In this document: positions 60,125 through 64,000 of the stretch, piece after piece
Layout: each line of letters starts with the position of its first letter
Numbering within the stretch: position 1 is the first letter of the stretch
Assembly: GCA_041736275.1 (NCBI GenBank)
Contig: JBGSUC010000031.1
Span: 17,682 to 81,681 of the forward strand
Length of the DNA stretch: 64,000 nucleotides
Origin: Prolixibacteraceae bacterium
GTDB lineage: Bacteria > Bacteroidota > Bacteroidia > Bacteroidales > Prolixibacteraceae
Reading direction: 5' to 3'
Notes under the pieces: generated by a model
Told to the model about the DNA's origin: nothing
The model's database searches: none
The model's input: only the letters and a program-made list of their open reading frames with translations
Made by a program: the position numbers and the translations under genes

Positions 60125-62836
60125 ATGAATGTTTTTCGTCAGGAAAGTCGGTTGGTTGAAGAAATCTTGGTAGTTGATGATATTTCTGCAAACCTTATTT
60201 TGTTATCCGATATGATAAGTTCAGAAGGATATTCTGTTCTTAATACAACTTCAGGAGAACAAGCATTTCAGATTGCGAAAGAAAACTTGCCATCAATAAT
60301 ACTGCTTGATATTAAAATGCCTGTTGTTGATGGCTTTGAAGTTTGCCGTCGCTTAAAAGCTGATTCGGTAACTTCGGGTATTCCCATTATTTTCGTTAGT
60401 GCTTTGGACGATCTTGAGGCGAAATTAAAGGGATTTGAGCTTGGAGGAGTTGATTTTATTACCAAACCATATCGAAAAGCTGAGGTTCTGATTAGGGTTA
60501 AGACACATATCCGGTTATCGCAGTTAATGTTTCAACAGAAACAGCATGCTAATGAACTGCTCGCTGTTAATAAGCAATTGAAGGAAGAGATTCGAAGAAG
60601 AGAGCAAGCAGATAATGCGCTCAAAAACAGCGAAGAACGATACAATGCTTTTGTGGATGCCAATGAAGATATGATTTTTTTGAAGGATGATCAGTTTCGA
60701 TATTTGGTAGTGAATGATGCGATGGCCGTTTTTTTTGGGAAAACAAAAGATGAAATGCTCAATAAAACAGATTCGGAACTTGCTGATGAAAAAATCATAT
60801 TCCCATGTGGCTCATCTGACCAGAGATTATTGGAATCAGATTCAGCTTTTATAATTGAAGAGCAATTAGGCGAACACTTTTGCGAAACAACAAAGTTCCC
60901 GGTAAAACTGAAAGGAAATAAAAAAGGAATCGGGGGAATTATACGCAATATTACCGAACAAAAGAAAATAGCCACAGAACTGAAAGAGAGCGAAGAAAAA
61001 TTCAGAAATCTGGCTGATTCCTCACCAGCTGCAATAGGTATTTATCAGGATGATTATTGGGTATATGTAAACAGGTCAACCGTGGAGATGAGTGGTTACT
61101 CTTTGGAAGAACTTTACCGGATGAGGTTCTGGGAAATCGTCTCCCCCGACTATCAGGAATTGATTTTGAAAAATGGTCAGGAAAGGCTCGCAGGTTCAAC
61201 GACACCAAAATCATATGAATTCCCGGTAAGAGTTAAAAGTGGTGCCTTGCGGTGGGCATATATGACTGGTAGTAGCATAACCTTTAAAGGTCGGCCTGCA
61301 GGAATAATTACTATTATTGATATTACCGAGAAAAAGAAGGCCGAGACAGATATTCTGGAGGAACGCGTATTATTACGAACATTGATTGATAACTTACCAG
61401 ATCCGGTCTATGTTAAAAATAGAAATGGGCGTAAAATGCTCTCAAATATTGCAGACATAAAAAATATGGGTGCAAAAAATGAAGCCGAAGTATTAGGGAA
61501 GTCTGATTTGGAACTTTTTAATTCAGAAATGGGTCACCGTGGGTACGAAGATGATATCATCTTGTTTGAAAGCGGAGAACCAGTGATCAACCGGGAGGAA
61601 ATATCTATTGATGAAAATGGTGTCAAGCGCTGGTTATTAACCTCGAAAATTCCTTTGTTTGATCAGGATGGAAACACAACAGGACTCGTTGGGATTGGTC
61701 ACGATATCACGGAAATCAAGAAAGCCAACGAAACCATCCAGAAACTTTCGCAAAGCATAGAACAAAGCCCATCATCCATTGTAATTACTGATCTTAACGG
61801 AGATATAGAATATGTGAATCCGAAGTTTACAGAGATTACAGGATATACTGCAGCTGAAGTAATTGGGAATAATCCACGAATCCTTAAATCAGGAGAAACG
61901 CCTGACGAATATTACAAAGACATTTGGGATACGATTTCAATGGGTGAGATTTGGCGGGGGGAATTTCATAACCGAAAAAAAAATGGCGAATTGTATTGGG
62001 AATGGGCCACAATGACTTCCATTAAAAATGAATCCGGAAAAATCACTAATTATATTGCAATTAAAGAAGATATAAGTCTCCGGAAGCAAATGGAAGCCGA
62101 TCTCATAATTGCCAAAAACAAAGCAGAGGAAAGTGATCGTTTAAAGTCTGCTTTTCTGGCAAATATGTCGCACGAAATTCGTACACCACTGAACAGCATC
62201 ATTGGCTTTTCTGAACTTTTATCTGATACGCATTTTGACATAGAACAGAAAGATGAGTTCATTCAACATATAATAGATAATGGAAACAGCCTGCTAACCA
62301 TCATAAGTGATATCATGGATTTTTCAAAGATGGAGGCAGGGCAAATTACCTTTCGGGAAAAAACGATTCCAATAAATAAATTCCTGAGTGGAATAAATGA
62401 GGAATATATTCATAAGTTTAAAAGTAAAGAACTAAACCTGATTTTTGAAATTCCAAATACTGATGAGGAGATTTTCCTTTATACAGACATCGACCGTCTC
62501 CGGCAAATTTTTAATAATTTAATTAGTAATGCACTTAAATTTACGTCAAAGGGAAGTGTAACTGTTGGATATGAGATCAAAGATGAAATGATACACTTTC
62601 ATGTGAGGGATACCGGAATTGGAATACCAGTTCAATATCACGATAGGATTTTCGTGCGTTTTAATCAAGTCGAATCATCGAATACGCGGATTTATGGAGG
62701 GAATGGTTTGGGTTTAGCCATCACACGAGCCTTGGTTGAAAAAATGGATGGAAAAATTTGGATTGAATCCGAACCGGAAAAGGGTTCAACCTTTAGCTTT
62801 ATGCTACCTGTTCAAAAAAAATATGTTGAAGGGTGA
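60125..62836 (+). CDS. hybrid sensor histidine kinase: N-terminal receiver, about four PAS domains, HisKA, HATPase
   Basis: 903-aa ORF. REC (ILVVDDISAN, ILLDIKMPVVDG, ITKP), repeated PAS/PAC blocks, H-box FLANMSHEIRTPLNSI and G-box GGNGLGLAI. It is preceded by AGGAGG at 60113-60118. Confidence 0.9.
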   Translation: MNVFRQESRLVEEILVVDDISANLILLSDMISSEGYSVLNTTSGEQAFQIAKENLPSIILLDIKMPVVDGFEVCRRLKADSVTSGIPIIFVSALDDLEAKLKGFELGGVDFITKPYRKAEVLIRVKTHIRLSQLMFQQKQHANELLAVNKQLKEEIRRREQADNALKNSEERYNAFVDANEDMIFLKDDQFRYLVVNDAMAVFFGKTKDEMLNKTDSELADEKIIFPCGSSDQRLLESDSAFIIEEQLGEHFCETTKFPVKLKGNKKGIGGIIRNITEQKKIATELKESEEKFRNLADSSPAAIGIYQDDYWVYVNRSTVEMSGYSLEELYRMRFWEIVSPDYQELILKNGQERLAGSTTPKSYEFPVRVKSGALRWAYMTGSSITFKGRPAGIITIIDITEKKKAETDILEERVLLRTLIDNLPDPVYVKNRNGRKMLSNIADIKNMGAKNEAEVLGKSDLELFNSEMGHRGYEDDIILFESGEPVINREEISIDENGVKRWLLTSKIPLFDQDGNTTGLVGIGHDITEIKKANETIQKLSQSIEQSPSSIVITDLNGDIEYVNPKFTEITGYTAAEVIGNNPRILKSGETPDEYYKDIWDTISMGEIWRGEFHNRKKNGELYWEWATMTSIKNESGKITNYIAIKEDISLRKQMEADLIIAKNKAEESDRLKSAFLANMSHEIRTPLNSIIGFSELLSDTHFDIEQKDEFIQHIIDNGNSLLTIISDIMDFSKMEAGQITFREKTIPINKFLSGINEEYIHKFKSKELNLIFEIPNTDEEIFLYTDIDRLRQIFNNLISNALKFTSKGSVTVGYEIKDEMIHFHVRDTGIGIPVQYHDRIFVRFNQVESSNTRIYGGNGLGLAITRALVEKMDGKIWIESEPEKGSTFSFMLPVQKKYVEG

Positions 62837-63066
62837 TTTTGAAAGCAAAGTATTTAATTCGTCAAGAAAAATACAATTACGTATTGAGCTTGCTGATTTG
62901 ATTCTTAAAAATTGAGATAAAAAAAGCTTTAACAGGATATAATTCATGTCTGTTTTCATAATAATATAGCAAAGGTATTTTTGTCATAAAAATGGCGAAA
63001 AAGAGATTTAATTACATAAATACAAAGGCTTCTCTTATAGTTTTTCATGAAAACAAACATTTTACT

Positions 63067-63099
63067 TTCAAATTAATTTTGGAAGTTCAAATTAATTTT
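63067..63099 (+). repeat. 14-bp perfect direct repeat TTCAAATTAATTTT x2 abutting the ilv promoter
   Basis: Copies at 63067-63080 and 63086-63099 (19-nt period); the second copy ends 1 nt before the -7 box. Confidence 0.6.
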
Positions 63100-63107
63100 T
63101 ACATTTG
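63100..63107 (+). promoter_or_regulatory. candidate -7 promoter box (TACATTTG) for the ilv leader
   Basis: TAnnTTTG lies 26 nt upstream of the first leader ATG. Confidence 0.5.
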
Positions 63108-63132
63108 CCCTTATTAATTGCAAACAACAACA

Positions 63133-63198
63133 ATGAAAAATATTAGCATTATATCTCTTGTCATTAGCAGCGTGGTGGTCGTCCTTCGTGCTGAGTGA
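63133..63198 (+). CDS. ilv leader peptide 1 (MKNISIISLVISSVVVVLRAE)
   Basis: 21-codon ORF with 11 Ile/Val/Leu codons including VVVV. Its stop overlaps the antiterminator arm. Confidence 0.65.
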   Translation: MKNISIISLVISSVVVVLRAE

Positions 63199-63261
63199 GA
63201 ATGGTATAGTGTGAGTTTAAAAACTTTAAAGCCATTCTCAGATACTAAGAATGGCTTTTTT
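63197..63261 (+). promoter_or_regulatory. attenuator 1: alternative antiterminator/terminator
   Basis: GAGAATGGT (63197-63205) or AGAATGGCT (63248-63256) can each pair with AGCCATTCTC (63230-63239). The terminator is followed by T5-6. Confidence 0.65.
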
Positions 63262-63278
63262 AATGAAAAAAAATCACT

Positions 63279-63338
63279 ATGAAATCTGCATGTTTTCTAC
63301 TGGTTCTCGTCATTGTCGTCGTCATTCTCATTGTTTAG
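63279..63338 (+). CDS. ilv leader peptide 2 (MKSACFLLVLVIVVVILIV)
   Basis: 19-codon ORF with 13 Ile/Val/Leu codons. Its stop abuts the second antiterminator arm. Confidence 0.65.
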   Translation: MKSACFLLVLVIVVVILIV

Positions 63339-63413
63339 AGAGGAAGGCTAGTTAGAATATGCATTTAAATGATATTTGAGCCTTTCTCTAATGAATGAGA
63401 AAGGCTTTTTTTT
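63339..63413 (+). promoter_or_regulatory. attenuator 2: alternative antiterminator/terminator
   Basis: AGAGGAAGGCT (63339-63349) or GAGAAAGGCT (63397-63406) can each pair with AGCCTTTCTC(T) (63379-63389). The terminator is followed by T8. Confidence 0.65.
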
Positions 63414-63441
63414 AAGAAAAAATAATTTCAGACAAAAAGGT

Positions 63442-64000
63442 ATGCAGAAACGATTAAGATCAGCTACTACGACCGAAGGTCGACGTATGGCTGGAGCAAG
63501 AAGCCTTTGGCGGGCTAATGGAATGAAAGAAGAACATTTTGGACGACCGGTGATTGCGATCGTCAATTCATTCACTCAGTTCGTCCCCGGACATGTTCAT
63601 CTCCATGATATTGGTCAATATATTAAAGGAATAATTGAAAAAGAAGGTTGTTTTGCAGCTGAATTTAATACTATAGCCATTGACGATGGAATTGCCATGG
63701 GGCACGACGGGATGTTGTATTCTCTGCCTTCACGCGATGTTATTGCGGATAGTGTCGAATACATGTGTAATGGTCACAAAGTTGACGCCATGGTTTGTAT
63801 TTCTAATTGCGATAAAATTACCCCTGGAATGATGATGGCAGCTATGCGCCTGAATATTCCAGCCATTTTTGTTTCAGGTGGCCCTATGGAAGCTGGAGAG
63901 ATTGATGGTAAAATGTATGATCTTGTTGACGCTATGGTAATGGCAGCCGATAATTCGGTTTCAGACGAACAAATTGCTAAAATTGAACGGGATGCTTGTC
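63442..64000 (+). CDS. ilvD: dihydroxy-acid dehydratase, N-terminal part (continues beyond the window)
   Basis: [60 protein letters not shown]. Confidence 0.95.

Follow-up and report, generated by a model that had tools for sequence, protein, structure and literature searches.

Two predicted Ile/Leu/Val leader-peptide attenuators in series upstream of ilvD in a Prolixibacteraceae genome

How is a biosynthetic gene controlled when its leader carries, one after the other, two short reading frames crowded with codons for the end products of its pathway, each followed by a hairpin and a T-run? This question is raised by ilvD of a Prolixibacteraceae bacterium, whose 5' part lies at the end of a 64,000-nt stretch of contig JBGSUC010000031.1 (hereafter the window). 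Positions 63067-63441 very probably constitute the promoter and 5' leader of an ilvD(-ilvB...) operon. The reading that we favour, at a probability of roughly 0.8, is that this leader holds two complete ribosome-mediated transcription attenuators in series ahead of ilvD, which would respond to Ile, Leu and Val (I/L/V). An initial annotation, made from the sequence alone, had proposed this attenuation logic. Folding with a masking ribosome, shuffle controls, an orthologous tandem on a metagenome contig and covariation within a family of related leaders support it.

Two leader units with competing helices

Both I/L/V-rich open reading frames (ORFs) listed in the initial annotation match the window base for base in all coordinates and sequences, and segments A, B and C of each unit, the T-runs, the TAnnTTTG box, the ilvD ATG and a 14-bp repeat at the promoter lie as given there (Table 1). 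Of the three-segment layout it described, A, B and C hold; each unit is predicted to have four segments, the one added here being segment 1, which lies within the ORF. Segment B can pair with A to form an antiterminator or with C to form a terminator. These mutually exclusive folds, also foreseen in that annotation, were borne out by A:B duplexes of -15.6 kcal/mol in unit 1 (z = -3.7) and -15.8 kcal/mol in unit 2 (z = -4.4), and by covariation of both helices in an alignment of related units described below. The ORFs, the hairpins and their mutually exclusive pairings, as well as the conservation and covariation of these features, were established by computation.

Chance in A+T-rich DNA does not account for the arrangement. 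Across the window, both strands included, only ORF1 and ORF2 qualified as I/L/V-rich short ORFs with a downstream T-run, defined by at least 50% I/L/V, a run of at least four such residues and a stretch of six or more T in the next 130 nt. Forward-strand matches to the terminator pattern GCC[A/T]TTCT...GA[A/T]GGC-T(n) were confined in the window to two sites, terminators 1 and 2, the sole further match being the reverse-strand reading of the palindromic terminator 1. A terminator scan of positions 62500-64000 returned three sites against 0.8 expected, and two of these were terminators 1 and 2. Folding, which had been suggested as a check, gave z = -3.9 relative to dinucleotide shuffles for 63120-63441, and the alternative structures were compared with the ribosome placed codon by codon.

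For this comparison a ribosome was placed at every codon and only the RNA 3' of it was folded, with a footprint that extended 12 or 14 nt past the first nucleotide of the A-site codon. Pairing across the ribosome was judged sterically implausible for short linkers, and the scan was repeated with the 3' RNA only. With the ribosome at codons 1-3 or at codons 18/19 to the stop, the predicted probability of terminator 1 was 0.96, and for stalls at codons 5/7 to 17 it fell to 0.00-0.5, with the minimum at L9, V10 and I11. In unit 2 the terminator probability reached 0.98 from codons 17/18 to the stop and did not exceed 0.4 for stalls at codons 3-14; the read-through fold of this unit contained an extra helix, 63325-63332 with 63394-63401, that occupies part of segment C. 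On Ile, Leu and Val codons in the middle of the ORFs, stalls gave probabilities of 0-0.3. Free untranslated RNA of either unit was predicted to form the terminator with a probability of 0.95. It folds into the terminator plus a long hairpin formed by the 5' half of the ORF together with segment A and the spacer (spanning 63146-63212 in unit 1; 63287-63315 with 63336-63363 in unit 2), and termination is predicted for the free RNA because segment 1 sequesters A. When the terminator was kept fixed and the upstream sequence was dinucleotide-shuffled, an equally strong antiterminator effect arose in 1 of 200 shuffles for each unit.

From these structures we infer translation of the ORFs, stalling, termination, read-through and a multiplicative effect of the two units. 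Each short ORF, with its many I/L/V codons, would be translated while the RNA emerges. When charged transfer RNAs (tRNAs) for Ile, Leu and Val are plentiful, the ribosome would reach the stop codon and thereby cover segment A, because the stop overlaps or adjoins A. With A covered, B would pair with C to form an intrinsic terminator, and transcription would end at about 63261 or 63413. A ribosome stalled on I/L/V codons in the middle of the ORF would instead disrupt the pairing of segment 1 with A, and the exposed A would capture B before C is made, so that no terminator would form and the polymerase would read on. If the leader were not translated at all, segment 1 would pair with A and termination would again result, as in trp. 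Both units probably share one transcript, since there is no TAnnTTTG box between them, either in the window or in L084, a metagenome contig that carries both units with near-identical peptides and an ilvD fragment 89% identical to that of the window. On a single transcript with no promoter between the units, the polymerase would have to escape both terminators. Expression of ilvD would then approximate the product of two read-through probabilities, so that, compared with a single unit, basal expression would be lower and the response steeper. By hairpin energy and number of U residues, terminator 1 is predicted to be the weaker and terminator 2 the stronger of the two (Table 1).

The codons at which stalling is predicted to prevent termination are mainly Ile and Val codons in unit 1 (codons 6-17) and mainly Leu and Val codons in unit 2 (codons 7-14). 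A clean division into an Ile sensor and a Leu sensor was considered and rejected: codons for all three amino acids occur in the sensitive stretch of each unit, only their weighting differs, and either unit could thus respond to any of the three. Codon use in the leaders is unusual. GTC makes up 7 of the 11 Val codons of the two leaders versus 12% in the two flanking genes; the Val codons are GTC and GTG in unit 1 and mostly GTC in unit 2, both of them uncommon in the two neighbouring genes. Leucine is specified by CTN codons only, likewise uncommon in these genes, and neither leader contains TTA or TTG. Uncommon codons are a known feature of leader peptides, and the bias seen here could stem from tuning of the sensitivity by way of rare tRNAs or from the needs of RNA pairing.

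The element is preceded by a Bacteroidetes-type promoter, from which transcription would start near 63112-63115. A scan for consensus sigma-70 promoters gave nothing relevant, as expected for Bacteroidota, and the -33/-7 Bacteroidetes motif was used instead. The sequence ahead of both start codons is A-rich and unstructured and lacks a Shine-Dalgarno motif, in agreement with what is generally known of translation initiation in Bacteroidota. In the relatives L002 and L005, ilvB (acetolactate synthase large subunit) follows ilvD.

Table 1. Features of the ilvD promoter and leader in the window (MFE, minimum free energy)
Feature	Position	Strand	Sequence	Remarks
Direct repeat, 14 nt, two perfect copies	63067-63080 and 63086-63099	+	TTCAAATTAATTTT	Period 19; spans the promoter
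Second TAnnTTTG box	63074-63081	+	TAATTTTG	Repeat copy 1 plus the next G
Bacteroidetes-type promoter	63078-63107	+	TACATTTG (-7 box)	-33 TTTG at 63078-63081; spacer 18 nt; -7 TAcaTTTG at 63100-63107
Leader ORF1	63133-63198	+	MKNISIISLVISSVVVVLRAE*	11/21 I/L/V (4 Ile, 2 Leu, 5 Val)
Unit 1 segment 1	63146-63165	+		Within ORF1; pairs with 63186-63212 in the MFE structure of 63114-63262
Unit 1 segment A	63196-63205	+	GAGAATGGT (63197-63205)	Antiterminator 5' arm, from the UGA stop of ORF1; partner 63230-63239
Unit 1 segment B	63230-63239	+	AGCCATTCTC	
Unit 1 segment C	63248-63256	+	AGAATGGCT	Followed by T's to 63261
Terminator 1	63228-63261	+	GCCATTCTC/GAGAATGGC	Type A stem; hairpin 63228-63258, -14.0 kcal/mol; T6
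Leader ORF2	63279-63338	+	MKSACFLLVLVIVVVILIV*	13/19 I/L/V (4 Leu, 6 Val, 3 Ile)
Unit 2 segment 1	63287-63315	+		Within ORF2; pairs with 63336-63363 in the MFE structure of 63263-63414
Unit 2 segment A	63339-63349	+	AGAGGAAGGCT	Antiterminator 5' arm, directly after the UAG stop; partner 63379-63389
Unit 2 segment B	63379-63389	+	AGCCTTTCTCT	
Unit 2 segment C	63397-63406	+	GAGAAAGGCT	Followed by T's to 63413
Terminator 2	63378-63413	+	GCCTTTCTC/GAGAAAGGC	Type T stem; hairpin 63378-63407, -17.5 kcal/mol; T8
ilvD, 5' part	63442-64000	+		ATG at 63442; first regulated gene, cut by the window end; NCBIfam NF009103, dihydroxy-acid dehydratase, E = 2.6e-100

The direct repeat had been put forward as a possible additional, protein-mediated layer of control. 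It is perfect and lies at the promoter as described. Its 19-bp period is the same as the spacing between the -33 and -7 elements, and the 63100 box shares the TTTG of the 63074-63081 box as its -33 element. Among relatives, conservation of the repeat is seen in L001-3, in L084 and, in part, in L006; elsewhere in the window it does not recur above chance. Two staggered promoters, a duplicated promoter element or a protein site could underlie it. A protein operator was set aside, as nothing supports it and the period together with the embedded TAnnTTTG box points to promoter self-similarity; self-similarity or tandem promoters would explain the repeat at least as well.

A few further features were noted around the leader. 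The upstream gene (60125-62836, + strand) encodes a 903-residue PAS-domain sensor histidine kinase with a receiver-like N-terminal region and four PAS matches; it ends about 300 nt 5' of the leader. The scan predicted no terminator for this gene, and nothing evident connects it with ilvD. Because terminator 1 is nearly palindromic, with A's on its 5' flank, the scan also calls a minus-strand terminator at this site. Weak reverse-strand matches to the covariance model of the family (see below) were likewise seen at the terminators of several relatives. ORFs of at least 20 residues were listed over 62700-64000. An alternative-frame ORF at 63251-63355 (+ strand; 34 residues, rich in His, Cys and Arg; MAFLMKKNHYEICMFSTGSRHCRRHSHCLERKAS), which begins inside terminator 1 and overlaps leader 2, is probably spurious and is not conserved in L084.

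A family of ilvD leaders in Bacteroidia

With the ilvD fragment of the window as query, 80 loci from species genomes and 80 from metagenomes were retrieved; none was identical to the window, the best fragment identities being 93-94%. An I/L/V-rich ORF of 18-29 codons was present in about half of the genome loci and in most of the metagenome loci, usually 145-210 nt upstream of ilvD and farther upstream in some lineages. All loci with such an ORF belong to Bacteroidales or Marinilabiliales, and most of the loci examined from these two orders carry the element upstream of ilvD. The loci retrieved from Fibrobacter, Desulfobulbaceae, Spirochaetota and other groups outside Bacteroidia were without it. 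In nearly every carrier locus the ORF is followed by a terminator with the stem AGCCTTTCTC...GAGAAAGGCT, and the best upstream partner of the 5' arm of this terminator almost always begins at the leader stop (consensus UGAGAAAGG). Compared to shuffled sequences, the A:B duplex had a median z of -2.7, with 65% of the units below -2. Of 82 distinct loci, 75 have a TAnnTTTG box in the 80 nt that precede the first leader, compared with 5% of random 80-nt windows.

Alignment of relatives, another check proposed at the outset, confirmed that the ORFs and hairpins are conserved and that the helices covary. Among 82 distinct units the terminator helix is 97.9% paired, with changes on both sides at 6 of 11 pairs, and the antiterminator helix is 94.4% paired, with changes on both sides at 5 of 9 pairs. 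For both helices, the observed percentage of pairing, count of cells changed on both sides and covariation score were each unmatched in 500 column shuffles, and sliding the register lowered the score greatly in every case. Furthermore, covariation extends over three strands. Twelve of 12 units with A at the fourth base of B (column 89; type A, GCCATTCTC) have T at the partner positions in both C and A, while the 67 units with T at this column (type T, the stem form common to most of the family) have A in segment A in 48 cases and G in 7. The leader stop forms the first three bases of segment A in 57 of the 82 units; where it is UAA instead of UGA, the partner bases in B and C differ too. Segment A of unit 1 of the window corresponds to alignment columns 17-25.

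The stems are unusually conserved across Bacteroidia families for a plain hairpin, which is what one would expect if a protein or small molecule read the conserved GAGAAAGG/CCUUUCUC/GAGAAAGG segments and selected the fold, the ORFs being incidental. However, B has to match both A and C, and A contains the stop, and this triple constraint explains the conservation of the stem so that no protein partner is needed. The I/L/V-rich ORF, moreover, always ends at or next to A while its sequence otherwise varies freely, and it is enriched in precisely those amino acids that the pathway produces. Matches to riboswitch, T-box or protein-binding leader families were not found either: the most sensitive scan of 62800-63600 against Rfam 15, with E up to 10, gave sub-threshold noise, the best leader being Phe_leader with 19 bits against a gathering threshold of 55, and no match to a T-box, a guanosine tetraphosphate (ppGpp) riboswitch or another riboswitch. 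The RNA between the promoter and each terminator is almost wholly ORF. Selection of the fold by a protein or ligand is therefore considered very unlikely.

We also weighed whether the ORFs encode functional small hydrophobic membrane peptides, such as toxins or regulators of membrane proteins, with the hairpins serving as their terminators. The peptides are strongly hydrophobic and, at 19-21 residues, about as long as one transmembrane helix, and from some attenuators both the terminated leader transcript and the peptide act in trans (Sinorhizobium trpL, PMC7298713). Against this, the peptide sequences diverge freely between lineages apart from their richness in I/L/V, the ORFs are specific to the ilvD leader, between the promoter and the gene, and their stop codon belongs to a helix in competition with the terminator. 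A search of the leader peptides against NCBIfam found no matching family; the best hit was the enterobacterial ilv leader peptide NF007744, with 11 bits versus a cut-off of 59 (E = 0.23), and the exact peptides were not found in a collection of 15 billion proteins. Of the explanations considered here, membrane peptides appear the most improbable.

A covariance model built from the 82 units found matches in most Bacteroidia loci. As judged by these sequence comparisons the family is widespread in Bacteroidia and has no matching family in Rfam 15 or NCBIfam; the Bacteroidota setting appears to be a property of the family and not a peculiarity of the window.

Tandem and single units among relatives

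Applied to the window, the covariance model returned exactly two full-length matches, 63187-63266 (62.4 bits) and 63330-63416 (60.2 bits). Unit 1 is of type A and unit 2 of type T, and the two are collinear from the ATG to the T-run with a z of about 7 relative to shuffles, a score to which the segments shared by the whole family contribute; they are probably old duplicates. The duplication in series with two different peptides, emphasized in the initial annotation, therefore stands, but it is not unique to this genome. Besides L084, the same type-A then type-T layout is present in L006, with diverged peptides. In L032 (Prolixibacteraceae metagenome-assembled genome OY829943.1, 2630-2990) a second, weaker family match lies upstream of the main unit. 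Its leader of 28 residues has 32% I/L/V (MKEMTAISKYYVIRVNRISVILLSQKAE) and the antiterminator match is poor, so that this may be a first unit in decay. An Ancylomarina/Labilibaculum group (L027, L029, L045; about 420 to 60 nt upstream of ilvD) carries tandems with different stems, longer leaders and an antiterminator arm located about 20 nt within the ORF. Tandems were also found in a human-gut lineage (L134, L136, L138, L142, L143; about 330 to 40 nt upstream of ilvD), in which the U-run of the second terminator is poor. Within the family the doubled form is uncommon.

The comparison with L084 reveals how the leaders have changed. In leader 2 (MKSAYYLLVLVIIVVILIV in L084) seven codon differences are synonymous, including a stop-to-stop change, and three are non-synonymous (C to Y, F to Y, V to I), with all I/L/V codons kept. 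Leader 1 (MKNISIISLVINSVVVVLRAE in L084) has retained its frame, stop and I/L/V positions in L084, L001-3 and L081-83. Across eight relatives, 7 of its 13 variable sites are third codon positions; where a residue was originally Ile, Leu or Val, substitutions stay within these three, and the Ser/Asn of position 12 is replaced by Ile/Val in single-unit loci. This pattern is as expected if selection acts on translatability through the I/L/V codons. Pairing of segment 1 with segment A was predicted in both units of the window, is implied in L006 and in unit 1 of L084, and was absent from the predictions for some relatives, L032 among them.

The closest ilvD relatives, L001-3 and L081-83, have one unit each (leader region in L001: 2845-3000). 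This unit is composed of leader 1 and a type-A segment A (GAGAATGG or GAGATTGG), joined to the type-T terminator GCCTTTCTC and the sequence downstream of unit 2. Joining a type-A arm to a type-T terminator leaves one or two central mismatches in the A:B helix of these loci. In a rough neighbour-joining tree of the 186-residue ilvD fragment the window and L084 are interleaved with single-unit loci. The simplest reading of this short alignment is that the tandem is ancestral to the clade and was lost more than once by deletion between the terminator 5' arms, which are nearly identical (AGCCaTTCTC and AGCCtTTCTC).

That these nearest relatives manage with a single unit raises the possibility that only one of the two units of the window works, the other being a duplicate in the course of being lost or a leaky, non-regulatory terminator. 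The decayed appearance of the upstream unit of L032, with its poor leader and weak A:B pairing, and the weak equilibrium switch of unit 2 in L084 point in the same direction. Yet both units of the window have a strong predicted switch that shuffled sequences rarely reproduce, and both score about 60 bits with the family model. Between the window and L084, in addition, silent changes are many, yet both leaders preserve their frame, stop and I/L/V codons, and tandems have persisted in several separate lineages. We thus regard a single working unit as unlikely.

A more far-reaching proposal, which is rather doubtful and to which we give only slightly more credit, is that the tandem is an evolvable device for gain and logic, combining differential weighting of the amino acids, loss and perhaps regain of a unit by recombination, and an action of the terminated leader RNAs in trans. 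The near-identical 5' arms of the terminators would then let recombination delete, and perhaps regenerate, a unit and so switch between one-stage and two-stage control, and L001-3 and L081-83, with their chimeric single units, would bear the traces of such recombination. By analogy with the Sinorhizobium trp leader RNA, the short terminated leader RNAs could act in trans.

Several observations weigh against two complete attenuators in series and have to be set beside the evidence above. Bacteroidota do not use Shine-Dalgarno initiation, and transcription-translation coupling is not known to have been demonstrated in this phylum. Many of the aligned sequences are related, and the shuffle controls consequently overstate the significance of the covariation. 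The set of sensitive codons depends on the model, namely on the footprint and on pairing across the ribosome: with such pairing allowed, termination is predicted even when the ribosome stalls at codons 14-17, the VVVV run of unit 1. In many single-unit relatives no switch was seen at equilibrium, the minimum terminator probability remaining above 0.9 (L001, L002, L005, L007, L011 and others), and in unit 2 of L084 the switch was weak, with a minimum of 0.53. For these loci the case is built on conserved A:B complementarity and on the assumption that co-transcriptional folding prefers the 5' helix. An equilibrium switch was seen in the window, L006, L013, L032, L061, L075 and others. Since the equilibrium test fails for many relatives with very stable terminators, it was replaced by z-scores of the A:B duplex and covariation counts.

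Relation to known attenuators and significance

The proposed serial attenuators resemble those of the enterobacterial ilvGMEDA (ilvL), ilvBN (ivbL) and trp operons in that a leader ORF with codons for the end products is combined with 2:3 (antiterminator) and 3:4 (terminator plus U-run) pairings; the 1:2 pairing of these systems is predicted in both units of the window. As in these systems, a ribosome at the stop would cover segment 2 and several amino acids would be sensed, and the operon under control includes ilvD. In contrast to the enterobacterial leaders, the units described here are preceded by a Bacteroidetes -33/-7 promoter, have A-rich start contexts lacking a Shine-Dalgarno motif, encode peptides of 19-21 instead of 32 residues and form two complete units instead of one. 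Homology was not detectable at the level of sequence or model, as the NF007744 and Phe_leader scores given above indicate.

Cis-regulatory RNAs in series are known from the triple T-box leader of Bacillus subtilis thrZ and from tandem riboswitches. The Salmonella mgtCBR leader contains tandem attenuators with two short ORFs in one leader (PMC3641672). All of these share with the ilvD leader the presence of at least two sensor-plus-terminator units, each of which the polymerase has to pass, and lower leakiness and a sharper response are expected from such an arrangement. They differ from it in their sensors: those of thrZ and the tandem riboswitches are tRNA- or ligand-binding RNAs, whereas here they would be leader-peptide attenuators. 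The two ORFs of mgtCBR sense different signals, adenosine triphosphate (ATP) and proline, and do not precede an amino-acid biosynthetic operon, whereas the two units described here belong to the same family and would have overlapping specificity for Ile, Leu and Val. Full-text literature searches did not turn up a serial pair of leader-peptide attenuators for amino acids.

The mechanism itself is textbook knowledge, and the finding extends known biology rather than being a surprise. Experimental study of leader-peptide attenuation has mostly concerned Proteobacteria, Actinobacteria and Firmicutes. Candidate attenuators in Bacteroidetes/Chlorobi were reportedly described by Vitreschak et al. 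in FEMS Microbiol Lett in 2004, and the single-unit form may already have been predicted in the earlier literature. Attenuators of ilv and leu genes with leader peptides have been described in Corynebacterium (ilvBNC; PMC10272879, PMC11857589), Staphylococcus aureus (ilv-leu; PMC5794164) and Actinobacteria (PMC1262725); these share principle and pathway with the ilvD leader and seem to be of independent origin in different phyla. Within Bacteroidota, a transcriptome study of Flavobacterium psychrophilum reported 'strong clues' for leader-peptide attenuation upstream of amino-acid operons (PMC9723704), and one of Bacteroides thetaiotaomicron described leader-like small ORFs in long 5' untranslated regions, with no mention of ilvD, supplements included (PMC7366714). 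The 'ilvD motif' of PMC8632094 was considered and is a different RNA, confined to Veillonella. Full-text searches, which did not cover Vitreschak et al. 2004, found no description of the Bacteroidia ilvD element, of the UGAGAAAGG/GCCUUUCUC/GAGAAAGGC triad or of the tandem.

RNA-based regulation in Bacteroidota is poorly charted. As the family is absent from Rfam 15 and NCBIfam, its leaders are at present unannotated in genomes, and it provides a testable handle on the control of branched-chain amino acids in gut Bacteroides. Leader-peptide attenuation, as worked out in enterobacteria, needs a ribosome close behind the RNA polymerase. A large conserved family of attenuators in Bacteroidia argues for close coupling of transcription and translation in this phylum as well. 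What an added stage contributes to such a switch has so far been examined mainly for tandem riboswitches and T-boxes. The polymorphism between tandem and single units, with its apparent repeated loss, offers a natural experiment on what the second stage does for leakiness, steepness and amino-acid weighting.

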